Assembly (NCBI GenBank): GCA_044892525.1
Contig: CM097885.1
Coordinates: 21,020,001 to 21,084,000 of the forward strand
Source of the DNA: Schmidtea polychroa
Taxonomy: Eukaryota
Direction: 5' to 3'
DNA length: 64,000 bases
The position numbers and the translations under genes were made by a program. The number at the start of each line of letters is the position of its first letter. Position 1 is the stretch's first letter. The notes under the pieces are model-generated. The model was not told the origin of the DNA and searched no databases. It was given only the letters and a program-made list of their open reading frames with translations. This document shows, one piece after another, positions 1,206 to 47,500 of the stretch.

Positions 1206-1739
1206 ATAAAAACACTTATATTTTATATTTTGGGATGTCTCGCATATGGGACAAATATAGTAGTTGATGCCAATCTATGACCGTAGTATTTTTTCATGGT
1301 CTTATGGCATAAATTGGAATGGCCTCTTGAAGATTGGCAATATTTGCGATATAATTTACCTGTTAACGAGAAATTATAAAAGATGGTGAAAAATATTATA
1401 ATCAATTGTTATTAGTTAGTCTATTTTTATCTTTATAAAAAAAAAAAGATTAACTAATAACCATTAAAAATAATAATCTATAATATTCGTTTTTTTTTTT
1501 CAAAGATAGTTGTAAACTACTTTGAACATTAATATAAGAAGAATATTTATTATTATTTATATTATTATTATTAATATTATTATTATTATTATTACTATAG
1601 TAGGTAGATAGTAGCCCGCGGGAAAAATTACCCCCCCCCCCGGGGGGGTTGTTCCCAACTTTTTATTACGCAATTGTTCCCAACTCATTTTTTTGCTTTC
1701 AGGGATTTTTGGTCCAAATTTTTTTTTATCACACTTATT

Positions 1740-2300: not shown

Positions 2301-2304
2301 AACG

Positions 2305-3010: not shown

Positions 3011-4140
3011 AGGTACTAACAACTAGTTACCTAATACTAAGTACCTACAACCACCTAACAAGTACTAACAACCAAAAACAAGCAACCAAACAGGTACCAG
3101 ATACCACCTACTAAGTACCAACAACCAACTAGTTACCAGATACCTACAACTAGATACTAACAACTAGATACCAAGTACCTACAACCACCAACCCATTAAC
3201 TAGCTACCAAGTACTAACAACCAGGTCTCAAACAACTAAATACTAACAACCAGTTACCAACTACTAAGCATTAATTACCTACAACTAGTTACTAACAACT
3301 AGATACCAAGTACTTACAACCAACATCAACCAAGTACTAAGCATCATCAACTAACTACTAAGTACCTACAACCTACAACTAGATACTAACAACCAGTTAC
3401 CTGCTACCAAGTACCTACAACTGGTACTAACAACCAACCAACTAGGTACTAGATACCAACTACTTACAACCAACATCAACCAGGTACTAAGCATTATCAA
3501 CCAACTAAATACTAAGTACTAACAACCAACCGACTAGGTACTAGATACCAAGTACTCACAACCTACAACAACCAGGTACTAAGCATTAATTACCAACTAC
3601 TAAGTACCTACAACCTACAACTAGATACTAACAACCAGTTACCTGATACCAAATACTTACAACTAGATACCAAGTACTATCAACCAAAAACCACCAACCA
3701 ACTAGGTACTAGATACCAAGTACTCACAACCGACAACAACCAGTTACTAAGCATTATTAACCAACTACTAAGTACCTACAACCAACTAGCTACCATCTAC
3801 CATGTACTAACAACCGACAACAACCAGGTACTAAGCATTAATTACCTACAACTGGTACTAACAACCAACCAACTAGGTACTAGATACCAAGTACTCACAA
3901 GCGACAACAACCAAGTACTAAGCATTATTAACCAACTACTAAGTACCTACAACCAACTAACAACCACCTACCAAGTACTAACAACCAGTTACCAACTACT
4001 AAGCACCTACAACCACCTACAAAGTACATACAACCAACATCAACCAGGTACTAAGCATTATCAACCAAGTACTAACAACCAAGTAACTTACCTAGTACTA
4101 AGCACTGTCAACTAGATACCAAACACTTACAACCAGATGA
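3011..4140 (+). repeat. Strand-biased modular repeat (A/C-rich on +), built from words such as CAACTAGATAC, CAAGTACT, AACAACC, ACTAAGC
   Basis: Visible directly. Mirrored at ~10695-12060; also at ~46750-48355 and ~58320-59470. Confidence 0.85.
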
Positions 4141-4478
4141 CCACATGAAATTATTGGTTAAATATGAAAATAAGGGTTATATTTAGTTGTTAAGTAAATT
4201 ATGGTGTAAAATTAAGTAATAAAGCATAAATAGGTAAATTAAGGATAAGTAAATTAAAGTTAAAAAATTAAATTAAAGTTAATTAAGGTCCAAATTTTAA
4301 AAATAAGTAATCAATGTTCTAAAAAATTAAATTAAAGTTAAATAAGTAAATTAAAGTAATAATTTTTAAATAAGTAATGTAATATGAAAATTAAAGTAAG
4401 ATTTTTAAATTTATTATCAAAAGATTGAATAACCACCAACTTTTTTGAGAAATGTAATTTTTAATGAAAATTTAAATG

Positions 4479-4534
<56 letters not shown>

Positions 4535-5934
4535 TTAATAATAATTATAATAATAATTAAACAGTTACCAACAATCGGTTACTGATTATTTTTAACTAGG
4601 TGCTAACAAATACTTTCAACATGATACCACGTACTAACTAACTCTCAAACAACCACATACTTACAACTAACTACTTACAATCAACTAAATATTCTTCATT
4701 GTATTTTATGAAATGATTTTTAAATTAATTTTTTATCTATCTTCAAAAATATATTTAATTACAATCAGTAGAAAAACCTTTTCAAATTTAACAAAAAATG
4801 TTGATTTTCATCAAAAAACCACAACTCAACCACTTTAAAACACCACGTGAAATTCAAAATAATTACAATGAAAGACTAATGAATTCTAATTCACAAAACA
4901 TTCTTCTTTTAATTGATAACTTATTATTGCAATGTAAAAATCGCATTCAATAAATACTTATTGTTGATCAGTTTTATTATATATACTCTGAGTTTATCCG
5001 ACAGGATGTTTTGACCCCCTAAGGGTACTGGTCGTAAGGGTACTGGTCGTAAGGGTATTGGTAACACTCAACCCCCCACCTACTCATTAATTAGTTACCA
5101 TGTACTAACAACTAGGTTTCAAACAACTAAATACTAAACACTAACAACCAACAACAACCAGGTACTAAGCATTATCAACCTACAACTATATAACAACAAT
5201 CAGTATACAACACTGTACCAACTACCAAATACAAGAAACCAACAACTTAGTACCAACAATCAACTAACAACACATAAAAATAATAGCAATTAAATAAAAA
5301 AATTATTCTTCATCGCATACACTATTTTCTTATCAAAATCTAAAAAGTCAACCAACTACTTACAACCAACAACTATGTACTAACAAATTGATCTTTAAAA
5401 GCAAATACTCATCACTTGAAAAAAATTAGATGAAAAATTAATTGAACTCAAGGCACTTTTAAGATATTTGAACTCAAGGCATCAATAACTTGGTAAAAAT
5501 TGATTAAATTATTGTAAAAATTTAAATTATTCAAAATATACTAAATTAAAAAAATATAATTAATGGACAAGAAAGAACTTTAAATTCTAGTCATTGATCA
5601 TTCAAGTTAATATGAATCAACTAAGATAATAAATTAATAAGAATTTTGAAATAAGATCTAGTAGATAATTGATTTAGATTGAATAAATTAATTTAAATAA
5701 AATTAAATTTAATTATTTTTGTAAAAGTAATACATGTACTCAAATTGATTGACTGATTTCTCAATATATTCAAAAAAATCAGTATAAATTCATTACAATT
5801 ATCAAAGTCAGCAATCTACAATAAAAATAATTATCATTAAATTCCAAAAGAGACTAGATAACTAATGATAACATCTAACAAACCAGTAAATTCATTTAAA
5901 TGACAATAATTGGTATATCCAAGTGAATTCTCCA

Positions 5935-6430
5935 ATAAAATCATCTAAAAAGAATCATTTTCCCCTAAATATATCAATATTTAAAGATTGGTATTTTAAT
6001 GATAAGTACTTGTTAAAGATCATATATTCACCTCAAACTAACAAGATTCCTTAAAATCCCCTTAAATGACTACATTTCTATCCTTAATTCATATTATTAC
6101 AAATATCATCTAAAAAGCATCAAATTTCATTGAAATAACACTATCTTTAAAGATTGATATTTTAATGATAAGTACCCTTAAAAGACTATATATTCACCTC
6201 AAACTAACAAGATTCCTTAAAATCTCTTAAATGACTATATTTCTACCCTTAATCCATATTATTACAAATATTTCACTAAAATCATCTAAAAAGCATCAAA
6301 TTTCCCTGAAATAACTATCTTTAAAGATTAGTATTTTATCGATAAATATCCTTAAAAGGTTATATATTTACCTCAGACTAATAAGATTGCTTAAAATCCC
6401 CTTTAAATGACTTTAATTCCTATTATCATG
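5935..6430 (+). repeat. ~170-bp tandem repeat x3 within the palindrome arm
   Basis: ATCATCTAAAAAG recurs at ~5940, ~6105 and ~6281; mirrored at ~8410-8895. Confidence 0.75.
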
Positions 6431-7539
6431 AATATTTCCCTATAAAACATGTAAAATAATTTGGTCATTAACCCTAGATAATTGATAAAATCTAATGATA
6501 AAACCGGTTATAATTAACTTTTTGTTAATCACTGTACTCGAAATTTAAAATAAATATAACTGACTAGGTCCCATTAAAAGATTAAATTTATCCATTCAAT
6601 AAAATATATTTCTTCAAATGATCATTTTACCGATATTCAACCGATTTAATTACTAATTAAAATCAATCGATAGATTTCTTTCAATAAAGATCAATTTTAT
6701 TTAGTCGATGTTTTAAGTCCATATTTCTAAACTTTTATCATTTTTGTAAATTTCTATTATTTTTGTGGATTTCTAACATTTTTGCAAATTTGATGTTTAT
6801 TGAATGAATATTTAATAATTTAATGCTAATTCTAAGATAAATTTAATTAATTTCTTGATAATTGGATGTATTTTTATTGACTTGTTTTTTTTAATTTTAA
6901 ATAAAAATTATTTTCAATGAGGTTAATAATTAGAGATTTTACAATAATGAAGTGATATGATAAATTTTTATGAGGATATTGAATAATTTTCTAAGAATTT
7001 CATGTTGACTGATAAATTTAATTGATAAATTTAATTAATTTCTTGATAATTAGTTGTATTTTATTGAATAGTTTCTAAATAAAAATTAATTTCATTGACA
7101 ATTAGGTTAATAATTAAGTGATTTTTGATGATAACTTTGTAATGTATTTGACTAAATAATTTTTTCAATAATTTACTCATTGATGAACTTTAAAAAACAT
7201 AAGCTAAGAAACCAGTTAACTTTAAATTTACATGAAAATGATTGTAGGATATACAGAAATTTAGTTTGCTTGAAAATGATTGGTTGAATCGATGAAGAAT
7301 TATGATCAAACAATATATATCATCTCCAGTATTTGATGGTAAATATTTGTAGAAAATATTGATTTTTGATCTTTTAGTGGGCTCTTATTATTTAGCTTCT
7401 AAATTATTTCAATGGAAGAATATTTGGTGTCTATAACAATTCATTTGTTTTTTTGAAGAATTCTTTAAGGATTTTAAGAGGATTGACTGAATTAAAGGAG
7501 GATTCAAGTGGGTAGAATTGAAGGATATATTTGGTTAGA

Positions 7540-7860
7540 TGTTTAAAGAGGTAGAAATATTTAATGAGAGATCGATTAAGATGGGAAAATATGATCTTTT
7601 AAGGGAGATATAGTCGGTTAGATTTAATGAAGGATGGGTTAAGATGGAAATAGATCATTGTAAGGGAGATATAGTCGATTGACTTTAATAAGAAATCGAT
7701 TAAGATGGGAATATATGATCTTTTGAGGGGATATAGTCGGTTAGATTTAATGAGAGATCAGATAAGGTGGGAATATATTATTGTAAGGGAGATATAGTCG
7801 GTTGCTTTTAATGAGGGAAGGGTTTCGATGGGAATATATGATTTTTTAAGGGTGATGTTG
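7540..7860 (+). repeat. ~60-bp purine-rich tandem repeat (TTTAATGAGAGATCG...GGGAATATATGATC...GATATAGTCGG)
   Basis: About 5 degenerate units; homologues at ~50950-51230 (-) and ~55030-55320 (+). Confidence 0.75.
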
Positions 7861-8090
7861 GTAAAATATCAATGTTTTTTAAGGAAATTGCAATACATTA
7901 GTCAGTTATGAATCAATAATAATTATATCGTTTTATTAGGTTGTGATTAATCCATTGTATATTAATTTAGATTTATGGATTATTAAGTAGGGATAATGAG
8001 CGATTTACTTGGTTTTGACAATGAAAACTTTACAGATAATTGGGATTGATATCAACTTTAAATTATTTTTATCTTTATTTAGACGGAGAA

Positions 8091-10296
8091 TGACAAAAGT
8101 TTAGAAATATGGACTTAAAACATCGATTAAATAAAATTGATCTTTATTGAAAGAAATCTATCGATTGATTTTAATTAGTAATTAAATCGGTTGAATATCG
8201 GTAAAATGATCATTTGAAGAAATATATTTTATTGAATGGATAAATTTAATCTTTTAATGGGACCTAGTCAGTTATATTTATTTTAAATTTCGAGTACAGT
8301 GATTAACAAAAAGTTAATTATAACCGGTTTTATCATTAGATTTTATCAATTATTTAGGGTTAATGACCAAATTATTTTACATGTTTTATAGGGAAATATT
8401 CATGATAATAGGAATTAAAGTCATTTAAAGGGGATTTTAAGCAATCTTATTAGTCTGAGGTAAATATATAACCTTTTAAGGATATTTATCGATAAAATAC
8501 TAATCTTTAAAGATAGTTATTTCAGGGAAATTTGATGCTTTTTAGATGATTTTAGTGAAATATTTGTAATAATATGGATTAAGGGTAGAAATATAGTCAT
8601 TTAAGAGATTTTAAGGAATCTTGTTAGTTTGAGGTGAATATATAGTCTTTTAAGGGTACTTATCATTAAAATATCAATCTTTAAAGATAGTGTTATTTCA
8701 ATGAAATTTGATGCTTTTTAGATGATATTTGTAATAATATGAATTAAGGATAGAAATGTAGTCATTTAAGGGGATTTTAAGGAATCTTGTTAGTTTGAGG
8801 TGAATATATGATCTTTAACAAGTACTTATCATTAAAATACCAATCTTTAAATATTGATATATTTAGGGGAAAATGATTCTTTTTAGATGATTTTATTGGA
8901 GAATTCACTTGGATATACCAATTATTGTCATTTAAATGAATTTACTGGTTTGTTAGATGTTATCATTAGTTATCTAGTCTCTTTTGGAATTTAATGATAA
9001 TTATTTTTATTGTAGATTGCTGACTTTGATAATTGTAATGAATTTATACTGATTTTTTTGAATATATTGAGAAATCAGTCAATCAATTTGAGTACATGTA
9101 TTACTTTTACAAAAATAATTAAATTTAATTTTATTTAAATTAATTTATTCAATCTAAATCAATTATCTACTAGATCTTATTTCAAAATTCTTATTAATTT
9201 ATTATCTTAGTTGATTCATATTAACTTGAATGATCAATGACTAGAATTTAAAGTTCTTTCTTGTCCATTAATTATATTTTTTTAATTTAGTATATTTTGA
9301 ATAATTTAAATTTTTACAATAATTTAATCAATTTTTACCAAGTTATTGATGCCTTGAGTTCAAATATCTTAAAAGTGCCTTGAGTTCAATTAATTTTTCA
9401 TCTAATTTTTTTCAAGTGATGAGTATTTGCTTTTAAAGATCAATTTGTTAGTACATAGTTGTTGGTTGTAAGTAGTTGGTTGACTTTTTAGATTTTGATA
9501 AGAAAATAGTGTATGCGATGAAGAATAATTTTTTTATTTAATTGCTATTATTTTTATGTGTTGTTAGTTGATTGTTGGTACTAAGTTGTTGGTTTCTTGT
9601 ATTTGGTAGTTGGTACAGTGTTGTATACTGATTGTTGTTATATAGTTGTAGGTTGATAATGCTTAGTACCTGGTTGTTGTTGGTTGTTAGTGTTTAGTAT
9701 TTAGTTGTTTGAAACCTAGTTGTTAGTACATGGTAACTAATTAATGAGTAGGTGGGGGGTTGAGTGTTACCAATACCCTTACGACCAGTACCCTTACGAC
9801 CAGTACCCTTAGGGGGTCAAAACATCCTGTCGGATAAACTCAGAGTATATATAATAAAACTGATCAACAATAAGTATTTATTGAATGCGATTTTTACATT
9901 GCAATAATAAGTTATCAATTAAAAGAAGAATGTTTTGTGAATTAGAATTCATTAGTCTTTCATTGTAATTATTTTGAATTTCACGTGGTGTTTTAAAGTG
10001 GTTGAGTTGTGGTTTTTTGATGAAAATCAACATTTTTTGTTAAATTTGAAAAGGTTTTTCTACTGATTGTAATTAAATATATTTTTGAAGATAGATAAAA
10101 AATTAATTTAAAAATCATTTCATAAAATACAATGAAGAATATTTAGTTGATTGTAAGTAGTTAGTTGTAAGTATGTGGTTGTTTGAGAGTTAGTTAGTAC
10201 GTGGTATCATGTTGAAAGTATTTGTTAGCACCTAGTTAAAAATAATCAGTAACCGATTGTTGGTAACTGTTTAATTATTATTATAATTATTATTAA

Positions 10297-10355
<59 letters not shown>

Positions 10356-13300
10356 CATTTAAATTTTCATTAAAAATTACATTTCTCAAAAAAGTTGGTG
10401 GTTATTCAATCTTTTGATAATAAATTTAAAAATCTTACTTTAATTTTCATATTACATTACTTATTTAAAAATTATTACTTTAATTTACTTATTTAACTTT
10501 AATTTAATTTTTTAGAACATTGATTACTTATTTTTAAAATTTGGACCTTAATTAACTTTAATTTAATTTTTTAACTTTAATTTACTTATCCTTAATTTAC
10601 CTATTTATGCTTTATTACTTAATTTTACACCATAATTTACTTAACAACTAAATATAACCCTTATTTTCATATTTAACCAATAATTTCATGTGGTCATCTG
10701 GTTGTAAGTGTTTGGTATCTAGTTGACAGTGCTTAGTACTAGGTAAGTTACTTGGTTGTTAGTACTTGGTTGATAATGCTTAGTACCTGGTTGATGTTGG
10801 TTGTATGTACTTTGTAGGTGGTTGTAGGTGCTTAGTAGTTGGTAACTGGTTGTTAGTACTTGGTAGGTGGTTGTTAGTTGGTTGTAGGTACTTAGTAGTT
10901 GGTTAATAATGCTTAGTACTTGGTTGTTGTCGCTTGTGAGTACTTGGTATCTAGTACCTAGTTGGTTGGTTGTTAGTACCAGTTGTAGGTAATTAATGCT
11001 TAGTACCTGGTTGTTGTCGGTTGTTAGTACATGGTAGATGGTAGCTAGTTGGTTGTAGGTACTTAGTAGTTGGTTAATAATGCTTAGTAACTGGTTGTTG
11101 TCGGTTGTGAGTACTTGGTATCTAGTACCTAGTTGGTTGGTGGTTTTTGGTTGATAGTACTTGGTATCTAGTTGTAAGTATTTGGTATCAGGTAACTGGT
11201 TGTTAGTATCTAGTTGTAGGTTGTAGGTACTTAGTAGTTGGTAATTAATGCTTAGTACCTGGTTGTTGTAGGTTGTGAGTACTTGGTATCTAGTACCTAG
11301 TCGGTTGGTTGTTAGTACTTAGTATTTAGTTGGTTGATAATGCTTAGTACCTGGTTGATGCTGGTTGTAAGTAGTTGGTATCTAGTACCTAGTTGGTTGG
11401 TTGTTAGTACCAGTTGTAGGTACTTGGTAGCAGGTAACTGGTTGTTAGTATCTAGTTGTAGGTTGTAGGTACTTAGTAGTTAGTTGATGATGCTTAGTAC
11501 TTGGTTGATGTTGGTTGTAAGTACTTGGTATCTAGTTGTTAGTAACTAGTTGTAGGTAATTAATGCTTAGTAGTTGGTAACTGGTTGTTAGTATTTAGTT
11601 GTTTGAGACCTGGTTGTTAGTACTTGGTAGCTAGTTAATGGGTTGGTGGTTGTAGGTACTTGGTATCTAGTTGTTAGTATCTAGTTGTAGGTATCTGGTA
11701 ACTAGTTGGTTGTTGGTACTTAGTAGGTGGTATCTGGTACCTGTTTGGTTGCTTGTTTTTGGTTGTTAGTACTTGTTAGGTGGTTGTAGGTACTTAGTAT
11801 CAGGTAACTAGTTGTTAGTACCTAGTTGTAGATACTTGGTATCTGGTAATTTGTTGTAGGTACTTGGTTGTTTTTGGTTGTTAGTACTTAGTAGTTGGTT
11901 GTAGGTACTTGGTAGGTGGTAGTTAGTTGTTAGCTAATTGTTGTGGGTTGTTAGTACTTGGTATCAGGTAACTGGTTGTTAGTAACTAGTTGTAGGTATC
12001 TGGTTGTAACTACATGTTCGTAAGTTACTGGTTGTTGGTACTAAGTTGTTGGTTTGTTGTTGAATTATTATTAAAATTTGTCTTTGAAAAATTATTTCAT
12101 AAAAATTTCCATTAAAAATTACCATTAAAAAATATTTCATAAAAATTTCAATTAAAAATTAACTTAAAAAATTATTTCATAAAAATTTTAATTAAAAAAT
12201 TTCAATTCTCAAACACCTATTATTTCAACTTTTTGTTAATAAATTTAAAAATCTTACTTTAATTTACTTATTACATTACTTATTTAAAAATTATTACTAT
12301 AATTTACTTATTTAAAATTTTTTACCATTGATTACTTAATTTAAAAATTTGGACCTTAATTAACTTTAATTTAATTTTTTAGAACCTTAATTTACTTTAA
12401 TTTAAAAATTTGGACCATTATTTACTGTAATTTAATTTTTAGAACCTTAATTTACTTTAATTGAAAAATTTGGACCATTATTTACTTTAATTGAAAAATT
12501 TGAACCATAATTTACTTATTTAGACCATAATTTACTTTAATTTAATTTTTTAGAACCATTATTTACTGTAATTGAAAAATTTGGACCATAATTACTTTAA
12601 TTTAATTTTTAGAACCTTAATTTACTTTAATTTAAAAATTTGGACCATTATTTACTTTAATTTAATTTTTAGAACCATAATTTACTGTAATTTAATTTTT
12701 TAGGACCATAATTTACTGTAATTGAAAAATTTGAGCCATTATTTACTTTAATTTAAAAATTTGGACCTTAATTAACTTTCATTTAATTTTTTTTAGACCA
12801 TTATTTACTTAAATTCAATTTTTAGAACCATTATTTAGTGTAATTGAAAAATTTGAGCCATAATTTACTTTAATTTAATTTTTTAGAACCATAATTTACT
12901 TTAATTTAATTTTTGGACCATTATTTACTGTAATTCAAAAATTTTGACCATAATTTACTGTAATTCAAAAATTTGAGCCATAATTTACTGTAATTTAATT
13001 TTTTAGAACCATTATTTACTTTAATTGAAAAATTTGAGCCATAATTTACTGTAATTTAATTTTTAGAACCATAATTTACTTAAATTTAAAAATTTGGACC
13101 ATTATTTACTTTAATTGAAAAATTTACCACGTTTTTAGTGTAGACCACCTATTTCTCAGGACCAAGGAGACTCACCTCACTATAGTCTGAAAAAATCCTT
13201 GGCTTTTTTAGTGGTAGTCAGATTTTTGTATTGAAAATATCCTGAGACCTTAAATTACCATGCTTTTTTAGTGTAGACCAGCTTTTTGTATTGAAAAATT

Positions 13301-13739
13301 TTTTTTGTATTGAAAATCCTAGGACCATCGAGACCCCCTCACTATAGTCGGAAAATTCCATGCTTTTTTAGTGGTAGTCGGATTTTTGTATTGAAAATCC
13401 CAGGACCATCGAGACCCCCTCACTATAGTCTGAAAATTCCATGCTTTTTTATTGGTAGTCGGATTTTTGTATAGAAAATCCCAGGACCATCGAGACCCCC
13501 TCACTATAGTCTGAAAATTCTATGCTTTTTTAGTGGTAGTCGGATTTTTGTATTGAAAAAAATTTTTTGTATTGAAAATCCCAGGACCATCGAGACCCCC
13601 TCACTATAGTGTGATAAAAAAAAATTTGGACCAAAAATCCCTGAAAGCAAAAAAATGAGTTGGGAACAATTGCGTAATAAAAAGTTGGGAACAACAGGGG
13701 GGGGGGGTAATTGTTCCCGCGGGCTACTATCTACCTACT
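8091..13739 (-). repeat. Right arm of the element A inverted repeat
   Basis: Reverse complement of 1599..6740. The spacer 6741-8090 is homologous to ~54260-55610 of element B. Confidence 0.9.
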
Positions 13740-16470: not shown

Positions 16471-16594
<124 letters not shown>

Positions 16595-16625
16595 CCATGA
16601 CAACTTTTTGTGTTTCAATATACAT

Positions 16626-17849
16626 TTATACCAACACTGTTCTATTTGCAGTAATTTGAACTTCATTTTCAAATACTCCATATATTATAACATGTACCGG
16701 TTCAGTAATAGCTTTTGCAAACTTTATATCCAGTCGTAAATTTCCATTTTGTGGTAATTGACTTTGATTTAAATCAAAATCAGGGGCTAAAACAAATGTA
16801 AAAAATGGATATTTGCTTTTAAAATCTTCTAGAGTAATTCCACAATTCAAATTTTTATCTAAATAACCCAGATTTCTAACAATACTCTGCATATATGTCG
16901 CACAGTAATTGTCATTCTCGAAATCTTGAATATATGTTTCTCTATAATCAGTATTTTTCGACAAAGTCAATGAAGTAACATTAAAGTTTTTGAAAATTGA
17001 GCTGGAAGCAGTATAAGATCCATTATATTGTGCTTCACTTTGAAATGTTATCAGAATAAAATTAGGCATTCTTCTGTCACCAAATATTTGTTCTTTATAG
17101 AATGATGAAGCACCTTTAGCAATAGCGAATTGTACAATTTCCTTTGTCTTTAATGGATAAATTGCATGTTTTGAATTAAGACCCAATTGATGACCAGCTA
17201 ATACTGAGGGGTCCACTCGAACTCTTCTCACCAATAATTTTGCATCGACTAATTGACATATTGGTGCACCAGTTGCACTAGTAAGAGATAATGCAGAATC
17301 GGACCTTTTCAATCTAATGTGTACATTAACTCCCGGTAGTAAATATTTCGGTTGATCCATAAAATCAAGTTGTAACGATGAGCACATGGCGAAAACCTTT
17401 GAACCTTTAACCCACTTTTTTCTTTCATCATCTGTTGCTGCATAACCCATAGGTGTAAGACAGGTATTTTTAGTATCGGAATTGTAATTTAAAATAGTTT
17501 CTATCAAAGCCTTGTGAATGAATGTATTATTTCCACCCTCAATCTTGATATTATTAAATCCCAACACTGCATCTTTAAACAGAGTATGAAACATGAAATT
17601 GTTCGGTATTACATCTGCATTGGCATCCAAAACTTTTCTATCTTTATCTACAACCTTGATCTTAACAGTCAATAAAGTATCGTTCAAATCTAAATATTCA
17701 GTTTGCGAACCATTAATATAAAACTCTATATCATTTCTACTATCGGTAATTGAATTCATAGGAAAAACTTCCTCAAATGCCCCAAATTCTATTACAGCCT
17801 GGGGCGATGGTCTATCAAATATACATAATTCAGATTTACCACAAATCAT
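16626..17849 (-). CDS. Polinton major capsid protein (double jelly-roll, PY)
   Basis: 407 aa. N-terminal CGKSELCIFDRPSPQ...IEFYINGSQTEYLDLNDTLL and C-terminal GNLRLDIKFAK...IIYGVFENEVQI match Maverick MCPs. Confidence 0.9.
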   Translation of the reverse strand: MICGKSELCIFDRPSPQAVIEFGAFEEVFPMNSITDSRNDIEFYINGSQTEYLDLNDTLLTVKIKVVDKDRKVLDANADVIPNNFMFHTLFKDAVLGFNNIKIEGGNNTFIHKALIETILNYNSDTKNTCLTPMGYAATDDERKKWVKGSKVFAMCSSLQLDFMDQPKYLLPGVNVHIRLKRSDSALSLTSATGAPICQLVDAKLLVRRVRVDPSVLAGHQLGLNSKHAIYPLKTKEIVQFAIAKGASSFYKEQIFGDRRMPNFILITFQSEAQYNGSYTASSSIFKNFNVTSLTLSKNTDYRETYIQDFENDNYCATYMQSIVRNLGYLDKNLNCGITLEDFKSKYPFFTFVLAPDFDLNQSQLPQNGNLRLDIKFAKAITEPVHVIIYGVFENEVQITANRTVLV

Positions 17850-18214
17850 TTTGCAAATATAGTTCCATGTCCTTTCATTCGTTTGTTTATACGTGATATT
17901 CCATGTCTTTTACGTTTTGGAACAGGAGCTGGAGCTGGAGATTTTTCTTTTTGAAACATACCTGCAACCCCGGGTAAAACTTTACCTAATTCAGCTAAAG
18001 CATTTGTTTTTAGAGATGGTAATATTTTCTGTTCATTCATAATAACATCTTTTGCAGTTTTCATACCAAAACTACCAATACGTTTAAGAATAGGCAATGC
18101 AAATCTACCAATTGTTCTCAACCATCCCGATCCGTACTGTTTACCAATAAAATATGGTAATTCGCCACCAGATTGGCTACCGCTATACATACTAATAATA
18201 TCAGAATTTGCCAT
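17846..18214 (-). CDS. Polinton small virion protein (PM-like)
   Basis: QSGG and QYGSG motifs, amphipathic WLRTIGRFALPILK, basic C-terminus; lies between mCP and MCP. Confidence 0.7.
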   Translation of the reverse strand: MANSDIISMYSGSQSGGELPYFIGKQYGSGWLRTIGRFALPILKRIGSFGMKTAKDVIMNEQKILPSLKTNALAELGKVLPGVAGMFQKEKSPAPAPVPKRKRHGISRINKRMKGHGTIFAK

Positions 18215-19134
18215 CTACTTTACGAAAATGTAATGTCAAATGAGTTTTTGAACCTTTTGGAAAGTTTATAAGTTTTCCACTATCATCACGAATATTTATT
18301 TCTATATTGTTTATACATGAACTTGCTATTGGTAAATACATGGGATTATCGATATTTATATTGACAACTTCATCATGTTCATATTTTCCAATCCATACCG
18401 ATTTCAAAAGAGGAACACTGGAATCACCAACAATTATGGGTTCGATAATGTTAGTATATATGAACATTTGTTGATGATGTTCTAGTATTCTTGGTTTGCG
18501 TATACCAGTCGATTTTTCTCGATATTTTTGCCTATCTAATCCAAGTGAATTTGCCAAATTTTTATCAAATGTAACTTCGCAAATATCCTCATTCAAACTG
18601 AAGGTAAACATCAAATCTTTCACAATTTCCAAATTTTTAAATATGTGTGAACAATTGAACTTTAAATATTTAAGTAAATCATCAAGTTTATCAAAATATA
18701 ATTCATCAGCAAAGGTAAATGATTCTTCAACTTCATCATTATACGACACAGATATTTTGATTTCTTCTTTCATTACACTGTTTGCTTCAAATAGATTAAA
18801 ACGTAATAAATACTCGGTCTCCGTAACAATATTTTTCAACTTATTGCAACCCATTCGTTTGGCATCTTCAATAATTACTAATAATAAAGATACCGCTACA
18901 TGTTTTCACAATATTCCTTTTGAAATCAATCTTACATTGACTATAAAATGGGAATGTGTTGTACACGAATGTAAAATCTTGCAGTGCAACTTCCCAGTCA
19001 CCATTTAAAGAAATCGGATTCTGGAGATTGACCATAAATTTACTGGCTTGATTGTCTGGATGAATTAATGGGCAACTATTGCTCGGTAAAATAGTATAAA
19101 AAATCACTTTACTAGGTCTTTTGCTGATATCCAT
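18201..19134 (-). CDS. Polinton minor capsid protein (penton-like, PX), split over two frames by a probable intron or frameshift
   Basis: N-terminal FYTILPSNS...PISLNGDWEVAL; C-terminal MFIYTNIIEPIIVGDSSVPLLK...NIEINIRDDSGKLINF...LTLHFRK. Confidence 0.85.
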
Positions 19135-19733
19135 GACGGGTTTTGATAACCATGCCATTTGACATAGTATTGTTTATCCTTACCTACCTTTTTAGTTTTC
19201 AATATTTTTTGAATTCTAAATACTTTTGGAGGAGGAATGACTTGTAATTCCTGCTCATAAAATTTCCCTTGTACAATATTATTATCACTGTCTTTGATGA
19301 CATACATTACAGGATTCTGTTTAGTATTTATTTTTGAAATTACAAAGACTTCATCACTCCAATTTGTATCGAAATTTTTAATAAATGGTGATGCACTAAT
19401 TTTACTAATTCTAACATGGTCACCGACTTTATATTTAGGTTTTGCAATTTTTACAGATTTCTTAGAATAGAATGTTTTTGATGTAATATCAACCGGTCTC
19501 AATCCATCCAGTCCTCGATGTGATGAATGATTATAACTTGTTATTATTTTCGGTAAAGCATTTACCCATTTTTTATTACCTTGATGCACGAACAATTTCT
19601 TTAATCGATCTCTCAATGTTCGATTAAATCTTTCAACGTGGGCAGCTTTGTATTGAGAATGTACCGAGTAGTGATTTATTTTCAGTTTATCGAGGATTTG
19701 CTTAACTTTACTATTGTAGAATTCTTTACCTAA

Positions 19734-19798
<65 letters not shown>

Positions 19799-20186
19799 CT
19801 AAATCTGTTTGCAAGTTATTAGGATGTCCATCTTTAAATAAAATATTAATTGCCTTGGACATTTCTTCTGCAGATTTTGCCTTGACCGGTATTGCTCGTG
19901 CAAACCTGCTGTATACATTAATACATGTTAAAATATATTTATTCCCATTGTTAATTTTCGAATAGGGTATCATCTCCATCAAATCCATTTGCCATAAATC
20001 GTCAATACCAAATGTTTTATACGCTCTTGTTGGAAATCTTTTCCGCATTGGTTTGTTCAAACTGTACGCAAGCTGATCTGATAACCACTTCTGGGTTTCT
20101 TTTTTCGAATTCGGAACTCTTTTGTTTAATTTTGCCACTCCACCGAAACCGGCTTCGTCTTCTGGGTTCATCCAAATCTTCTCCAT
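19104..20186 (-). CDS. Polinton retroviral-like DDE integrase with C-terminal chromodomain; one 69-nt intron (19730-19798)
   Basis: Motifs WQMDL, QTDLG^KEF and HVERFNRTL; chromodomain YYVKWHGY..PSWI. The poly-Ile run in the ORF track is an (ATT)n tract bounded by GT...TAG. Confidence 0.92.
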
Positions 20187-20244
20187 TACAGCAAGAAGAT
20201 TTAAAATTAAATTTTATGTCAGGCAATGAAGGATTAGCACCCAT
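20017..20244 (-). CDS. Small ORF overlapping the integrase start; possible N-myristoylated protein
   Basis: Starts 3 nt after the upstream stop; MGANPS fits the MGxxxS consensus; contains SSCC. Confidence 0.4.
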   Translation of the reverse strand: MGANPSLPDIKFNFKSSCCNGEDLDEPRRRSRFRWSGKIKQKSSEFEKRNPEVVIRSACVQFEQTNAEKISNKSV

Positions 20245-20247
20245 TGT

Positions 20248-20769
20248 TTATGACTGTGTAACTCCACCTAATAATGATAATGCCAGAGGTATCAATGCAC
20301 CAATAAATCCACCTTGTTGTTTATATATAATTTTCCTCATTTGCTTACGATTTTTATTATTTACTAAAGATAACAATGGTTTCCTATGTTTGCTCAATAA
20401 ATGCTTTTTTGATTTACTGATTTTAATTTTGCCTTTGACTACTTTAAGTATAATATTGAGTAAATCATCGACAACAAAATTTGGGAATGATTGCAATATA
20501 TTCATTCTTTTCATACTCGGGGCCTTTAACAATGCATTAAAAAATGGAAAACTGCGATGATTTTTAACTACTTTTTTACTGGTTTTACGGGTTTTACGGG
20601 TTTTACGTTTAGGTTTAGGATTTTTAGAAATAAGATTCATTGCCGAGAAATTTTCAGTTACAAGTTTTTTAGACGGTGTAGTTGTTGGTGGAACTTTTGG
20701 AACTTTAATAGTCTTTCTAATACCTTTTCTTAATTTCTTAATATTTTTCACCCTTGCTTTTAGAAACAT
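20248..20769 (-). CDS. Basic Polinton protein (PW-like)
   Basis: Lys/Arg-rich, ends QQGGFIGALIPLALSLLGG; lies between ATPase and integrase. Confidence 0.7.
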   Translation of the reverse strand: MFLKARVKNIKKLRKGIRKTIKVPKVPPTTTPSKKLVTENFSAMNLISKNPKPKRKTRKTRKTSKKVVKNHRSFPFFNALLKAPSMKRMNILQSFPNFVVDDLLNIILKVVKGKIKISKSKKHLLSKHRKPLLSLVNNKNRKQMRKIIYKQQGGFIGALIPLALSLLGGVTQS

Positions 20770-20787
20770 TATTATTCATAGAGGTTT

Positions 20788-21414
20788 TCAACTTTGTTTA
20801 TAAACCATGGCACCTTTTGGGTTGAAAATATCTGTTTTTACTCGTAAATCATCGGGACATTGTTGTGTGAAATCAAGAAATATATATCCATGAGGTATTT
20901 TTGTAGCATCTTGAAATGCACTGATAAGAAAATTACGATTGTTAGGGTATGCTTGGCGTGCAAGAAAATAAATCACTGTTGCATCTCTAGGATTCTTGAA
21001 AATAACTAAATATTGTACATTTAAATTACGTGTTCGATGTGCCCCACCTTGATGAAATAGATTTTGTGTTATGAAAATAACTGTTACACCGACATGTCTG
21101 CTAATCTTTGTAAATAAATTATTAAAATCTTTTTCTTTATTAGCTTCTTGATACAAATCATCGATAATAATGACATCACCTTTCTTTAATCGGCTGGACC
21201 AGTTTTTATCGAATCCCTTTACTATTTTCATGTTTTTTAATTTACAGAAACTTGATTGAGTTAATCCATGTTCTTCTTCAGCACCCCTATGCCAATAAAT
21301 CCTGTTGAATTTTGATTTGAATAAATATGATTTTAGTAATTTACAAACAAATAATGTTTTTCCACTACCACTCGGACCAACGATTTGGTATACTGCATCA
21401 TTTCTTAATTCCAT
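20788..21414 (-). CDS. A32-like (FtsK/HerA) DNA-packaging ATPase
   Basis: Walker A GPSGSGKT, Walker B IIIDD, plus SRH..VTVIFITQN and FKNPRD. Confidence 0.93.
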   Translation of the reverse strand: MELRNDAVYQIVGPSGSGKTLFVCKLLKSYLFKSKFNRIYWHRGAEEEHGLTQSSFCKLKNMKIVKGFDKNWSSRLKKGDVIIIDDLYQEANKEKDFNNLFTKISRHVGVTVIFITQNLFHQGGAHRTRNLNVQYLVIFKNPRDATVIYFLARQAYPNNRNFLISAFQDATKIPHGYIFLDFTQQCPDDLRVKTDIFNPKGAMVYKQS

Positions 21415-21513
21415 TTCAAAAATTTTATAAATGTGTATTTGTTTATATTCGATGATTTAATGAACTCGTACTCAATTTGTATATAAAGACTAATTTTCAT
21501 AAATGATTTAATA

Positions 21514-21951
21514 ATGTTAGCAAATATAAATTATCGAGGAAATTTTGATGTAACAAATATGAGGTTCCCACCAGGAAAACCCCAGCAAATTATCGATAGA
21601 AGCGGGAAATACCCGATAATATTTTTCAAGACTGGTAAATGTAGAATCATGGGATGTAAGAAACCCTTGGATTTTAATAAATTACAATATCGAATAAATA
21701 ATATTAAAATCCAATCAATTACCGTTACTATGGATATGGGACATAGTATCAATTTATATAACATGTCGAAAAAATGTGATTGTATGTTTGAACCGGAATT
21801 TTTTCCCGCACTAAGACTAATAAAATATAACCCTTTATGTGTCAACGTGTTTGCTAGTGGAAAGGTTGTCATGCTGGGGTTGAGAAATTTGGAGTATAGA
21901 GAATTTGTTGACAATGTTCGAAATGAGATAATTTCATTGGTCAATTTCTAA
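21514..21951 (+). CDS. Divergent TATA-binding-protein-like protein
   Basis: Two TBP-repeat-like halves: IIFFKTGKCRIMGCK and FEPEFFPALRL...VNVFASGKVVMLG (compare TBP YEPELFPGL...LIFVSGKVVLTG). TATATAAAG about 25 nt upstream. Confidence 0.8.
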   Translation: MLANINYRGNFDVTNMRFPPGKPQQIIDRSGKYPIIFFKTGKCRIMGCKKPLDFNKLQYRINNIKIQSITVTMDMGHSINLYNMSKKCDCMFEPEFFPALRLIKYNPLCVNVFASGKVVMLGLRNLEYREFVDNVRNEIISLVNF

Positions 21952-22025
21952 TTGGTTAATTTCTAATTGGTTAATGATTGTTTTAAACAATATGTTTTCT
22001 GTTTAGAAATCATTTATTCAACAAA

Positions 22026-22461
22026 ATGTACAACATACAAAGTTCCGCAATCACCTCAATGAAAGAGCATGCAAATTATGGTAATTTCAAATGTTTATTA
22101 TTACATTAATATATATTTTACAGATGAATATCAATCAATTATCCTGCAAAGATTATGCTTCTATTATCCAGAATTAAATGAAATTCTACAAGATAGAGAT
22201 CCAGCTATCATTCCGGATTTGGTATACAACCAAACACGAATCTGGATATTCGATATAATAAACACCTTTCTATGGGATGTCAAGATAGGAAGGGTGATGA
22301 AAGAAATGAAACCAGAGGCTCCTTGCATTTTCGGATGTAGCTGCTGCAATTTCCGTTATCATCAATATGTTGAATGGTTTTTGGTGAAGACTCTGAGAAA
22401 TCACCACTCGTCATATTGTATCAAAATAAATTTTTATGTTGAATTGTTTTTGTTAATATAA
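22026..22461 (+). CDS. Two-exon hypothetical Polinton protein (~130 aa)
   Basis: Exon 22026-22080, 43-nt GT-AG intron, exon 22124-22461 in frame (MYNIQSS...HANYDEYQSIILQRL...); Cys cluster CIFGCSCC. Confidence 0.55.
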
Positions 22462-22707
22462 ATAATAGAAATAGAAATAATAGTAATAGAAATAGTAATA
22501 ATATAAGTAATAATAGTAATATTAGAAATAATAATAAAAAAAAACAATATTTATAATAAAAACATTAATGCAACATTAATGCAAATGACATACAATTTAA
22601 TCAAAGACATGCAATTTAAACAAAGACATGCAGCAATCTGATTGGTTGATAAACAATAGTCATAGGTATAAAAACCCTGTACCATTTCATTTTAATCATA
22701 ATTCACG

Positions 22708-23127
22708 ATGACAAAGAAAATTTCAAGCACTGAAAAGCCGAAAGTTGTTCCAGAACTTGTACAACCCGTTCAAATGTTCCACAACTATAAAATGTATTTT
22801 TTAAAAGAAGAAATCAATATGAAATTTGTGTCACCGATCAAGCTAATTCCTACCCAATTTCAATTTTTATCCGGCACGCTTTCAACGATAGATGTTAAAT
22901 CTATTGATGAGGTTTTCAAACGGTTGAATACGAATCTATCTTGTAATCAACATGCATTTTTCAACAACCGATATGCAAGATTTTATGATTCCTTTGATGA
23001 AATCAGCTTCAAAGAAAACGAAAATTGGTATATAACAATTGCAATCCAAGGATATAAAGTTGATAATAATGATGTGTATTCTCCAATTTGGAAAATTATG
23101 TCTGCTAGACTTTCACAACTATTTTAA
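22708..23127 (+). CDS. Hypothetical Polinton protein (139 aa)
   Basis: Clean ORF preceded by CTGATTGGTT and TATAAAAA, followed by AATAAA. Confidence 0.6.
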   Translation: MTKKISSTEKPKVVPELVQPVQMFHNYKMYFLKEEINMKFVSPIKLIPTQFQFLSGTLSTIDVKSIDEVFKRLNTNLSCNQHAFFNNRYARFYDSFDEISFKENENWYITIAIQGYKVDNNDVYSPIWKIMSARLSQLF

Positions 23128-23260
23128 TGTTATATTGAATAAATGTATTAGTCATATTTGTTTTTTCTCTTTATTAATTGCAACATTAATGCAAATGACA
23201 TGCAAATTTAACAAAGAAAATCTATAAACAAACTTATAATATAGTTTTAAAGTGTTAATA

Positions 23261-23475
23261 ATGTCTGCAGAAAAAGGTTAACATGATTAATTAATTTCCA
23301 AATTATTTATTATTTAGAATTTGTAATCAACTTTTTGTTGGCAAAATTAGCTGAAATATCTGGGGTAAAAATTGAGGATATATTATCTGTTACAAATGCA
23401 TTAAATATGGGCTGGGTAGTTGAGAGTCAAGATACAGGATTTGATGATGAGGAAGAAACTCAAGAAATTGATTGA
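23261..23475 (+). CDS. Two-exon small acidic protein (~57 aa)
   Basis: Exon 23261-23276, 41-nt GT-AG intron, exon 23318-23475: MSAEKEFVINFLLAKLAE...DTGFDDEEETQEID*. Confidence 0.45.
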
Positions 23476-23640
23476 CGAAATCTATGAACCTATAGAGGAA
23501 CCTAAAGATAATATTACGAATGATTGTATTGATCATGTCGTTGAAAATATAATGAAATGTGGAGATGATGATTGCGAATGTGTTAATAAATTTTAAAATT
23601 GAATTATTTTAATTTAAATATACTATTAAAAACAATAACA

Positions 23641-24169
23641 TTAATTTTTATTCATATATCTACAGAAAATATACATTATAACAACTCCAGTTGTAAGTTT
23701 TATATAGTTTTTCATTTTTCTTTTGATTTCATCAATTTCTTTAAAATTGCAGGCCAGTTTATTCAATACACCCCATCCGCCATTGGCTTCTATCCATGGG
23801 GTAAACTTGGACTTGATTATCTAGAAATGAATATTATTAAAATATATATGTAGATTATAAAAGAAATCTTACTTCTAAAGACCACTGATAATAATGTTCT
23901 GAGTCATGTTGACCTTTTGCAATGATTATCTTCATGTAGGTGAATCCTACAATTATCCTTGTCCATTTCATGTCTTCATCGAAAAGACACTGAAATATTC
24001 TATTGAAGTAATACTTCTTGGTTTCCAGGGATTCTATCTCCATCATTTGCTGATAATCGATATGTTCACCTTCAATGATTTGTTCAGTTCGATTGATCAG
24101 GAAATTGAGGCTGTCGACTATATTCGCGGTGACAATTCCGTTTAGAACATTTTCACTAAATTGAGACAT
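23641..24169 (-). CDS. Two-exon Bcl-2-family-like protein (~158 aa)
   Basis: Exon 24169-23873, 52-nt GTAAG...TAG intron, exon 23820-23641. BH1-like LFDEDMKWTRIIVGFTY, BH2 WIEANGGW, C-terminal hydrophobic tail LTTGVVIMYIFC. Confidence 0.8.
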
Positions 24170-24362
24170 TTTTATAATAATTTTTAATATACTGCTTTAT
24201 TTATATTACTACTGAAATAACATATGTTCTGATTGGTTGATAGACTATAAAAATAGGAGTTTTGATTTGATACACCATTAAAACTAAATTCATATTGGTA
24301 TAATGAGTGTGTGCTAAAACTAATAATAATAATAATAATAATACCATTGCGAGTTGTTGAGC

Positions 24363-24433
24363 GTGAGCAGTACCCTTGTGAGCATTACCCATAGGGGGAC
24401 AAAATATTTTGTCGGATAAACTCGGAGTATATA
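24363..24433 (+). promoter_or_regulatory. Conserved cis motif shared between the Polinton and the palindromic elements (function unknown)
   Basis: ...TACCCATAGGGGGACAAAATATTTTGTCGGATAAACTCGGAGTATATA differs from 52367-52438 by 4 substitutions and 1 indel. Confidence 0.6.
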
Positions 24434-24699
24434 GATTAATACTAATACTAATAATAATAATAATTATATGACCTTGAAAATGGTCTCGGGAAAACGATAA
24501 TAACTTTGTCAATATTAATGATGATGATACCTTCAATAGCTCATTCGAAAGGTCTTGCACTAAGCTTTAAAATGAGCTATCGAACGATGAAATAAAATGA
24601 TTGAAACGACAACTTTTGGGCAAACGAAAACCAGGAGCCCGCTAGATCACTAATAATATTTTGAATAATAATAATAAAATAATAATATTTTTTTAAATA

Positions 24700-24931
24700 A
24701 TAATATGACCTTGATGAGTCATCACGATGAGTCATATGACCTTGAGAATGGTATTGATGAGTCATGGTCTTTGTTTAAATGACCTTGATGAGTCATATGT
24801 CTTTGTTTAAAATTTGACCTTGAAAAAAAATGTACTTTTAGACTTAGAAAATTTTTTTAAAATTTTCCGGCCAAGGGAGGGGGTATGTGATCTAGCGGGC
24901 TCCTGATCTAGCGGGCTCCAATCCATCTACT
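24700..24931 (-). repeat. Probable Polinton right terminal/TIR region
   Basis: Short repeats (TGACCTTGATGAGTCA; TGATCTAGCGGGCTCC x2) ending in CTACT. Predicted TSD CATGGT (24932-24937); the partner end is not in the window. Confidence 0.65.
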
Positions 24932-44575: not shown

Positions 44576-47500
44576 AGTAGGTAGATAGTAGCCTACGGCA
44601 GCAATGACCCCCCCCCCGGGGGGGGGGGGGGGGGGTTCTGCTGCCGTAATTTTTTTGCTGCAACTTTTGATTACGCAATTTTTCACACTATAGTGAGGGG
44701 GTCTCGATGGTCCTGGGATTTTCAATACAAAAAAATTTTTTCTATACAAAAACGATGGTCCTGGGATTTTCAATACAAAAAAAATTTTTCTATACAAAAA
44801 TCCGACTACCACTAAAAAAGCATGGAATTTTCAGACTATAGTGAGGGGGTCTCGATGGTCCTGGGATTTTCAATACAAAAAATTTTTTTCTATACAAAAA
44901 TCCTACTATCAATAAAAAAGCCAAGGATTTATCACGCTATAGTGAGGTGAGTCTCCTTGGTCCTGAGAAATAGGTGTTCTACACTAAAAACGTGGTAATT
45001 TAAGGTCTCGGGATATTTTCAATACAAAAAGCTGGTCTACACTAAAAAGCATGGTAATTTAAGGTCTCATGATATTTTCAATACAAAAAGGCGGTCTCAC
45101 TAAAAAAGCATGGAATTTTCAGACTATAGTGAGGGGGTCTCGATGGTCCTGGGATTTTCAATACAAAAAAAATTTTCTATACAAAAACGATGGTCCTAGG
45201 ATTTTCAATACAAATAAATTTTTTCAATACAAAAACGATGGTCCTGGGATTTTCAATACAAAAAATTTTTTTCAATACAAAAATCCGACTATCAATAAAA
45301 AAGCATGGAATTTTCAGACTATAGTGAGGGGGTCTCGATGGTCCTGGGATTTTCTATACAAAAATCCGACTATCAATAAAAAAGCATGGTAATTTAAGGT
45401 CTCAGGATATTTTCAATACAAAAAGCCGGTCTACACTAAAAAAGCCAAGGATTTTTCAGACTATAGTGAGGTGAGTCTCCTTGGTCCTGAGAAATAGTTG
45501 GTCTACACTAAAAAAAAACGTGGTAATTTAAGGTCTCAGGATATTTTCAATACAAAAATCCGACTACCACTAAAAAAGCCAAGGATTTTTCAGACTATAG
45601 TGAGGCGAGTCTTCAATAAAGAAGCATGGTAATTTAAGGTCTCAGGATATTTTCAATACAAAAAGCTGGTCTACACTAAAAAAGCCAAGGATTTTTCAGA
45701 CTATAGTGAGGTGAGTCTCCTTGGTCCTGAGAAATAGGTGGTCTACACTAAAAAACGTTGTAAATTTTTCAATTAAAGTAAATAATGGTTCTAAAAAATT
45801 AAATTATAGTAAATTATGGCTCAAATTTTTAAATTACAGTAAATTATGGTTCTAAAAATTAAATTAAAGTTAATTATGGCTCAAATTTTTAAATTACAGT
45901 AAATTATGGTCCTAAAAAAATAAATTACAGTAAATTATGGCTCAAATTTTTAAATTACAGTAAATTATGGTCCAAATTTTTAAATTACAGTAAATAATGG
46001 TTCTAAAAATTGAATTACAGTAAATAATGGTCCTAAAAAATTAAATTACAGTAAATTATGATCCAAATTTTTCAAATACAGTAAATTATGGTCCTAAAAA
46101 ATTAAATTACAGTAAATTATGGTCCAAATTTTTCTATTACAGTTAATTATGGTCCTAAAAAATTAAATTAAAGTAAATTATGGTTCTAAAAATTAAATTA
46201 AAGTAAATTATGGCTCAAATTTTTCAATTACAGTAAATAATGGTCCTAAAAAATTAAATTACAGTAAATTATGGTCTAAATTTTTAAATTAAAGTAAATT
46301 ATGGTCCTAAAAATTAAATTAAAGTAAATTATGGTTCTAAATTTTAAATTAAAGTAAATTAAGGTTCTAAAAAATTAAAATAAAGTAAATTAAGGTCCAA
46401 ATTTTAAATTAAGTAATCAATGGTAAAAAAATTTTAAATAAGTAAATTGAAGTAATAATTTTTAAATTAAGTAATCAATGGTAAAAAATTTTAAATAAGT
46501 AAATTAAAGTAAGATTTTAAAATTTAATTACAAAAAGTTGAAGGTGTTTGAGAATTGAAATTTTTTAATGAAAATTTTCAATGGTAATTTTTAATGAAAA
46601 TTTTTATGGAATATTTTTTTTAAGTAATTTTTAATGGAAATTTTTATGAAATATTTTTCAATGATAATTTTAGATGGAAATTTTTAAGATAATTTTTAAT
46701 GAAAATTTTTATGAAATATTTTTCAAAGACAAATTTTAATAATAATTCAACAACAAATCAACAACTTAGTACCAACAACCAGTAACTTACGAACATGTAT
46801 TACCAACCAGATACCTACAACCAGTTACCTGATACCAAGTACCAACAACCAAAAACATGCAACCAACTAGGTACCAAGTACTAACAACTAACTACCACCT
46901 ACCAAGTACCTACAACCAACTACTAAGTACTAACAACCAAAAACAACCAACTAGGTACTAGATACCAAGTACTTACAACAAACATCAACCAAGTACTTAC
47001 TACCAACTACCAAGTACTTACAACTAGTTACTAACAACTAGTTACCTGCTACCAAGTACTTACAATTAGTTACTAACAACCAGTTACCTGATACCAAGTA
47101 CCTACAACCAACTACTAAGTACTAACAACAAAAAACAACGAAGTACCTACAACAAATTACCAGATACCAAGTGCCTACAACTAGTTACTAACAACTAGTT
47201 ACCTGATACTAAGTACCTACAACCACCTAACAAGTACTAACAACCAAAAACAAGCAACCAAACAGGTATCAGATACCACCTACTAAGTACCAACAACCAA
47301 CTAGTTACCAGATACCTACAACTAGATACTAACAACTAGGTCTCAAACAACTAAATACTAACAACCAGGTACTAAGCATTAATTACCAACTACTAAGTAC
47401 CTACAACCTACAACTAGATACTAACAACCAGTTACCTGATACCAAGTACTAACAACCGTCAACAACCAGGTACTAAGCCTTATCAACCTACAACTAGTTA

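Follow-up and report, generated by a model that had tools for sequence, protein, structure and literature searches.

The window, by which we mean the whole stretch of 64,000 nucleotides that was analysed, contains a coding Polinton-like element, two gene-less palindromes, called here A and B, and other repeats. A block of about 70-100 bases is present in the coding Polinton and in the two gene-less mirror-image elements, in flanks that are unrelated. The coordinates are collected in Table 1.

Table 1. Features of the window and copies of the block, with the site and strand of each 24-bp core
Feature	Positions	Strand	Remarks
Palindrome A	1599..13739	.	12,141 bp, gene-less, ends AGTAGGTAG, 6-bp duplication TACTAT on both sides
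Block, outer type, palindrome A left arm	4980..5063	-	3381 bp from left end; core 4980-5003(-)
Block, outer type, palindrome A right arm	9768..9851	+	3888 bp from right end; core 9828-9851(+)
Coding Polinton-like element	16593..24931	.	right end 24931, reads AGTAGATGG inward
Double jelly-roll major capsid protein, 407 aa	16626..17849	-	model pLDDT 85, Foldseek
Retroviral-type integrase and chromodomain	19104..20186	-	Pfam rve E 1.1e-5, Chromo E 2.9e-4, both below curated cut-off
A32-type packaging ATPase	20788..21414	-	Pfam Pox_A32 E 2.1e-6, above cut-off
Short TBP-like protein, 145 aa	21514..21951	+	Pfam TBP E 1.9e-14; phmmer to solved TBPs, best E 1.5e-10
Last ORF before block, weak Bcl-2-like match	23855..24169	-	Pfam Bcl-2 E 0.0023, below cut-off
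Block, Polinton type	24339..24433	+	15-bp-phased units (TACC at -68, -39, -24), G-run, core 24410-24433(+)
Palindrome B	44576..61376	.	16,801 bp, gene-less, ends AGTAGGTAG, 6-bp duplication TGCATA
Block, outer type, palindrome B left arm	49118..49217	-	4542 bp from left end; core 49118-49141(-)
Zero-substitution tract between B arms	52295..53013	.	one gap
Block, inner type, palindrome B left arm	52331..52438	+	units at -84, -69, -40, -24; core 52415-52438(+)
Block, inner type, palindrome B right arm	53966..54073	-	mirror copy; core 53966-53989(-)
Block, outer type, palindrome B right arm	57085..57198	+	five 15-bp units; 4178 bp from right end; core 57175-57198(+)

Like Polintons/Mavericks, the coding element encodes a capsid protein of the double jelly-roll kind, an A32 ATPase and an integrase, the last with matches below cut-off. 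The model of the capsid protein matches by Foldseek an iridovirus capsid with E 7.5e-17 and the mavirus MCP with E 7.2e-15; the sequence alignment of the same protein, for which 163 homologues were found, gave 0 matches to solved structures, where the fold search matched, and neither protein nor alignment queries found capsid relatives among the viral contigs. The integrase frame includes an Ile run derived from an AAT repeat. Among the ORFs scanned in the coding element there is no protein-primed DNA polymerase B and no protease. The window holds the right end of the element, with no left end and no partner TIR, and because the left end is absent this copy is taken to be a fragment.

Some further observations were made in and around the coding element. 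The end word GGAGCCCGCTAGATC forms a tandem pair at the Polinton end (24889-24919) and occurs once, mirrored, about 270 bp inside (24634-24650). The word CTGATTGG (reverse CCAAT) followed by TATAAAAA occurs at 22638-22670 before a 139-aa ORF, and the same pair recurs at 24229-24256, between the Bcl-2-like ORF and the block, pointing to the block. The stretch 24469-24822, between the block and the Polinton end, contains all 5 TGACCTTG words and 4 of the 6 TGA[GC]TCA words of the window, which we take to resemble NR5A/ERR and AP-1 sites, respectively. To the left of the capsid gene, the stretch 14577-16222 holds an acidic open frame with internal repeats, tandem units of 103 bp and 76 bp and, at 15713-15755, a palindrome of 43 bp.

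Judged by their sequence, palindromes A and B are gene-less Polinton-type insertions. Both have a 6-bp target duplication, an AG-type end motif and terminal inverted repeats, as is expected of non-autonomous Polinton-type elements, and all four palindrome ends begin AGTAGGTAGATAGTAGCC. A tblastn search of A and B with 11 Polinton ORFs gave no match, and the longest ATG frame is 53 aa in A and 107 aa in B. Palindrome B lies in the YARYVDD motif of the RT of a Penelope-like element, and since the motif is split with the duplicated letters flanking B at both sides, B is a true insertion. The Penelope-like element (GIY-YIG, RT) thus split occupies 43010-44575 and 61377-63019, and about 1 kb of it is present twice, inverted, at 99.4%.

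The right arms of A and B are mostly 90-100% alike per 100 columns, with A and B belonging to one family. The two arms of A differ by 5 substitutions and 1 gap across 3.7 kb. Those of B outside the central tract (44576-52294 versus 54100-61376) are only 81-99% alike, and because in addition the right arm is like A, B may join two different monomers. The B loop, of 360 bp and 14% GC, lacks the AGTAG end word, which speaks against taking the loop of B for an end module. The A loop (6743-8088, 1.3 kb) matches B arm sequence at about 79%, and since this match stops before the inner block, A folds back earlier than B.

Elsewhere in the window there are an LTR retrotransposon at 26296-30870 (235-bp repeats at 98%; gag, RT, RNase H and integrase matches), a low-complexity minus-strand open frame of 424 codons at 3-1274, and a 212-bp direct duplication at 98% (13739-13950 and 14039-14250), which lies directly after palindrome A with a TAT array between its two units.

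Copies, anatomy and conservation of the block

A sequence-only reading of this DNA had claimed seven copies of a motif with a shared pattern, and the 24-bp core is indeed found seven times with 0 mismatches, and not once in any of 100 dinucleotide shuffles. The count therefore holds, but the copies are not independent: because four of them and two of them sit in mirror arms, the seven reduce to just three sequence types, the Polinton type with 1 copy, the inner type with 2 and the outer type with 4. A second block word, 24 bp upstream of the core, has 7 matches at the same seven sites, where the mean expected by chance is 0.72. When the whole window was scanned with three natural copies, the best other ungapped match to the core was 16/24, and 0 copies of the block occur in the 26,719 bp of the window that remain outside the coding Polinton and palindromes A and B. 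The block is real and non-random, and within the window it is confined to Polinton-type elements.

The inward and outward facing that had been assigned to the copies agrees with all the strands found here, and the Polinton copy, placed earlier about 500 bp from the element end, lies 498 bp from it. The close match noticed between the Polinton and inner copies also stands (46/48 identical), but the length of 71 bp given to it is too short, the match actually extending over 103 columns at 87% (24339-24440 versus 52343-52443). In all copies the TATATA side faces the nearest element end or the fold-back centre, at distances of 498 bp for the Polinton type, 3,381-4,542 bp for the outer type and, to the end of arm symmetry, 583/584 bp for the inner type.

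Read on the motif strand, the block consists of 2-5 units followed by a G-run, an AT-rich stretch and the core, and its outer edge is sharp. The word TACC recurs with a 15-bp phase, at -24, -39/-40, -54/-55, -68/-70 and -84, with the Polinton and inner types skipping one 15-bp step; this phase is retained in 7/7 copies despite the differing sequence and number of the units. The core is a near-dyad, ATAAACTC-N-GAGTATAT, with 7/8 pairs, and the sole variable base among the seven cores is the centre of the near-dyad. The Polinton type also forms a 16-bp palindrome, which is disrupted in the outer type.

Two candidates were rejected at the block. A structured RNA or hairpin was dismissed as all seven folds gave z of -0.81 to +1.32 relative to shuffles, and a 63-aa inward frame from the Polinton copy was set aside as it crosses an AAT repeat and is not conserved in the other types. 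Rfam gave 0 matches and the tRNA scan 0.

The possibility that the block is conserved no more than its flanks fails when the types are compared with each other, where the block is an island of identity: over 5 pairs, the types agree with each other at 0.96-1.00 within the core, at 0.75-0.96 in the preceding 24 bp and at 0.61-0.87 in the next 23 bp, and they are no more alike than shuffles as early as the first 30 bp past the core and at more than 75 bp before it. Within the palindrome family the flanks are 90-100% alike too, and there the block is not measurably more conserved. In wider flanks, 4 of 20 Smith-Waterman comparisons scored above all 40 shuffles; three were low-complexity matches (AT-rich or AAT-repeat) and one was a marginal match of element ends, that of the Polinton end with the palindrome A right end (score 30, best of 40 shuffles 29); the Polinton end and the palindrome B right end gave no alignment. 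Thus the earlier statement that the flanks have no other similarity is correct for the immediate flanks, but the far ends have common Polinton hallmarks, with 5/5 starting AGTAG.

In the outer type the units and the middle have changed (6/24 differences), with the core kept at 24/24 and the same outer edge. We infer selection on the block, since its core, phase and edge are common to two diverged palindrome types and another organism, in flanks that are unrelated. The earlier proposal of a retained cis signal is supported by the identity island, by the occurrence in the window in Polinton-type elements only and by the near block-only cover in a run labelled as another organism, which is described below. 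On these sequence comparisons the block is likely a retained cis site, and it is highly probable, by our own estimate and not by computation, that it is functional when all the functional readings are taken together.

Cover of the block in public contigs

The Polinton end is partly present in 19 of the 24 public runs listed, with none recorded as RNA. Contigs of 5 different runs were mapped, 4 of the runs on the inner copy and 4 on the Polinton end. Contig depth is not copy number, and mapping favours alike sequence; for the former reason the pattern of the depth alone is used here. On the inner copy the summed contig depth peaks at 52394-52437 in 4/4 runs. In run X1 the peak is 21.0 and 13.9 million versus 0.9-2.8 million in 15 bins from 52460, in run X5 it is 3.9 and 2.7 million versus 0.09-0.53 million, and in run X7 it is 12,342 and 7,490 versus 25-339. 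In run X10, which is labelled as organism B, the peak is 2.4 and 1.8 million, and 12 bins (52460-52723) are without cover. The loose ends at the outer edge, among those listed, are run-dependent and short, and in X10 they are unlike the window. Among the matches listed, at least two differences of at least 5% lie inside 52395-52438, both upstream of the 24-bp core.

On the Polinton end, where the block itself was left out as a repeat, the stretches 24469-24570 and 24724-24825 are also high in contig depth. A peak of depth is therefore no special property of the block, and the Polinton end is taken to be a mosaic of shared pieces, of which the block alone recurs in the palindromes.

Among viral contigs, two motif patterns gave 0 matches. 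Three matches of a 21-letter pattern to metagenome contigs were taken as chance, all three (3/3) lying in DNA of 44-53% GC unlike the window; one of them, L001, is phage-like coding DNA.

Possible roles of the block

We consider that the block is likely a protein-docking site required in cis, most likely a packaging-type signal that would be read by helper-encoded proteins, and give this reading a probability of roughly 0.35. Under it, a coding helper would provide the polymerase, integrase, capsid and ATPase in trans, and the satellites would retain just their ends and the block. The repeats would offer the packaging ATPase, together with a small partner, several footholds that are redundant, comparable to the A repeats inside the ITR of adenovirus, and mirror doubling would take the satellites to a packageable 12-17 kb. 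The full form of this proposal, in which the block is the Polinton packaging signal itself and the palindromes are natural 'gutless' satellites doubled to capsid size, is put forward tentatively.

Packaging is favoured because there is an island of identity between the three types with flanks at shuffle level, because the 15-bp phase in 7/7 copies, the confinement and the contig depth peak in 4/4 runs go with it, because the palindromes are without Polinton protein matches but with 6-bp duplications, and because the coding element encodes both a capsid and an A32 ATPase and carries the block 498 bp inside its end. It is also favoured by the precedent of adenovirus, whose packaging sequence, in the passages of PMC4189039 drawn on here, consists of seven redundant repeats beside the ITR, works at either end and has its A repeats bound by IVa2 (an ATPase) and L4-22K. 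According to the same passages, gene-less adenovirus vectors require only the ITRs and the packaging sequence, and vectors of 15 kb become packaged in dimeric form, both direct and inverted (PMC4189039). Counting against packaging is the position of the outer copies: they lie 3.4-4.5 kb from the ends, and the adenovirus signal no longer works when it is more than about 300 bp inside the end (PMC4189039, same passages). Because of this position, at 3,381-4,542 bp, the block is to be regarded as an analogue of the adenovirus signal and not as a member of its class. Palindrome A counts against packaging as well, having no inner copies and yet being an intact insertion. The same holds for the high contig depth in other parts of the Polinton end, for the likeness of the flanks within the palindrome family, where the block does not stand out, and for the lack of any observation of Maverick particles (PMC8097293). 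The present Polinton copy, moreover, is probably not the helper of the palindromes, since the ends read AGTAGA versus AGTAGG.

Among the other functional readings, the one closest to the earlier suggestion of a TATA-type promoter bound by the element's own TBP-like protein is that the block is a promoter, directed inward or outward and read by host TBP or by the TBP-like protein, with transcription itself needed by the satellites. TATATA at the block edge, ATAAAC within the core, the TBP-like gene of the coding Polinton and the enhancer-like cluster of 5 TGACCTTG and 4 TGA[GC]TCA words just outward of the Polinton copy speak for this reading, although the cluster is missing from both palindromes. 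A full word of the TATA consensus type TATAWAWR is present only in the outer type, which weakens the suggestion, and the link to TBP is weakened further as the block reads ATAAAC-TC, unlike the box that precedes the virion genes, which is ATAAACAA. The latter word occurs within 130 nt upstream of 6/7 minus-strand ORFs of the virion module (17883-21447), and the 7.7-kb gene block contains 9 of its occurrences against 7 in the other 56 kb of the window, whereas ATAAACT is not so enriched (4 in the gene block versus 16 in the rest) and the ATAAAC and TC of the block resemble background matches; as a late-promoter box, the full ATAAACAA word before an ORF is absent at the block. The ATAAACAA box also fits a forkhead-type word, so that it may be read by a host factor instead of the TBP-like protein of the element. 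Moreover, organism-B contigs diverge from the window after GAGTAT (at least 2) or GAGTATAT (at least 47), some of them before TATATA ends, no common ORF lies downstream (the inward frames are 63, 23 and 2 aa) and Rfam gave no match. A promoter is accordingly regarded as improbable, and binding of the block by the TBP-like protein finds little support in the sequence. Another reading, which we place second after packaging though we think it less likely than not, is that of a replication or repeat-boundary site, where a bound protein would mark the inner TIR edge at which copying pauses, switches template or resolves; in consequence, the sequence outward of it would be swapped between families and kept identical between arms. 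The sharp outer edge, with flanks differing in the three types and in the organism-B contigs, is in line with this, and so are the arms of B, which have 45 substitutions in the 595 bp before 52295 and then none through 53013, the tract beginning just inside the inner block. The inner copies, too, are opposed across the fold-back centre at 583 bp, which is similar to the 498 bp of the Polinton, and poxvirus resolution sites, as described in the part of PMC8956199 used here, form an inverted pair around an inverted repeat and are also late promoters. However, the identity step is a single case, the outer copies of B showing no such step, and A folded back without any inner copy. In addition, the left end of the coding element is absent, so the block is not placed in a terminal repeat, and no stable single-strand fold was found in the 7/7 folds (z -0.81 to +1.32).

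It could also be argued that the block does nothing and is a neutral passenger, a piece of a Polinton end that was picked up through template switching, multiplied along with the high-copy palindromes and stayed alike through recent common origin or gene conversion. The 46/48 identity of the inner and Polinton types is as expected of recent capture, there are just three independent types in the window, and high copy number would by itself explain the depth peak. Against this, the outer type differs in its units and middle (6/24) and yet keeps the core at 24/24, the 15-bp phase and the same edge, and two captures with one edge, together with block-only cover in the other organism, are unlikely without selection. 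We thus hold neutrality to be rather doubtful. Still less probable is that the outer and inner copies of each B arm form the inverted ends of a second transposon, recognised by a host TA-targeting transposase in the manner of the internal TIRs of Teratorn. The two pairs, which span 3,321 and 3,233 bp and are flanked by TA, do have 24-bp perfect inverted ends, subterminal repeats and a TA-rich edge, and the loose ends are heterogeneous at the edge, with an agreement of 0.53-0.70 in several of those listed; the internal TIRs of Teratorn, in the section of PMC6431247 relied on, serve integration. By contrast, no free copy occurs in the 26.7 kb of other window DNA, the loose ends are short (median 14-18 nt among the large sets listed) and AAT-rich with no long unique flanks, and there are no independent TA-duplicated insertions of the block in the window.

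Should the block be a docking signal, as in our preferred reading, it would be a testable handle on the movement of Polintons. The gene-less satellites may be viewed as a natural deletion series, in which any non-end sequence that is retained is a candidate for recognition by the helper. The 24-bp dyad core with its phased repeats is compact enough for binding tests with the ATPase, the TBP-like protein and small basic proteins. Maverick particles have not been observed, according to the portion of PMC8097293 considered here; if the packaging signal were true, it would be indirect genomic evidence of particle formation by animal Polintons, with a named DNA site. If the block were neutral, it would merely mark Polinton-derived repeats.

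Comparison with known systems

Polintons/Mavericks are 13-25 kb in size with TIRs of 100-1,500 bp (PMC10748475) and are marked by a 6-bp target duplication and AG-type ends (PMC8097293, PMC10748475); in the parts of the latter two papers that we cite, the conserved cis sequence given for Mavericks comprises the 6-bp end motifs only, with no internal block. The present elements share with them the 6-bp duplications, the AG-type end motif, the integrase, the packaging ATPase and the double jelly-roll capsid. Their ends, AGTAGG/AGTAGA, are unlike those of vertebrate Mavericks, which in the same parts are (AGT)2, (AG)3 and (AC)3A, and the palindromes are unlike Polintons/Mavericks in having arms of several kb and no genes. 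In the literature covered, which is mostly non-subscription, was seen in part and excludes Repbase, we found no mention of a cis block in the interior of Polintons, and giant gene-less palindromic Polintons are not described in the same literature (including PMC8097293, PMC10748475 and PMC10175614, each in part); for the novelty of both, this is weak evidence. As context, a Dugesia preprint reports a Maverick expansion in that genus (10.64898/2025.12.11.693146).

With the poxvirus concatemer resolution sequence (PMC8956199, in the part used above) the block shares the inverted pair around an AT-rich fold-back junction and a promoter-like word. It differs in that no resolvase or viral RNA polymerase gene is seen and in that the site lies 500-600 bp from the junction and also far from any. 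As in Teratorn (PMC6431247, same section), long inverted repeats have a further inverted pair at their boundary. Unlike in Teratorn, there is no known transposase for the block, and no independent jump is seen. The Tlr1 19-mer repeats are another possible analogue of the block.

A further likeness is to adenovirus. The sequence of the block is different, and the block is paired on both sides, strictly oriented, situated up to 4.5 kb from an end and known from sequence alone. Like the adenovirus signal, it has short redundant repeats, present in 7/7 copies, which in the coding element, a linear genome from broadly the same lineage, lie just inside the end, and like helper-dependent adenovirus vectors, the palindromes are gene-less, have ends and one internal signal, and would reach capsid size as dimers.
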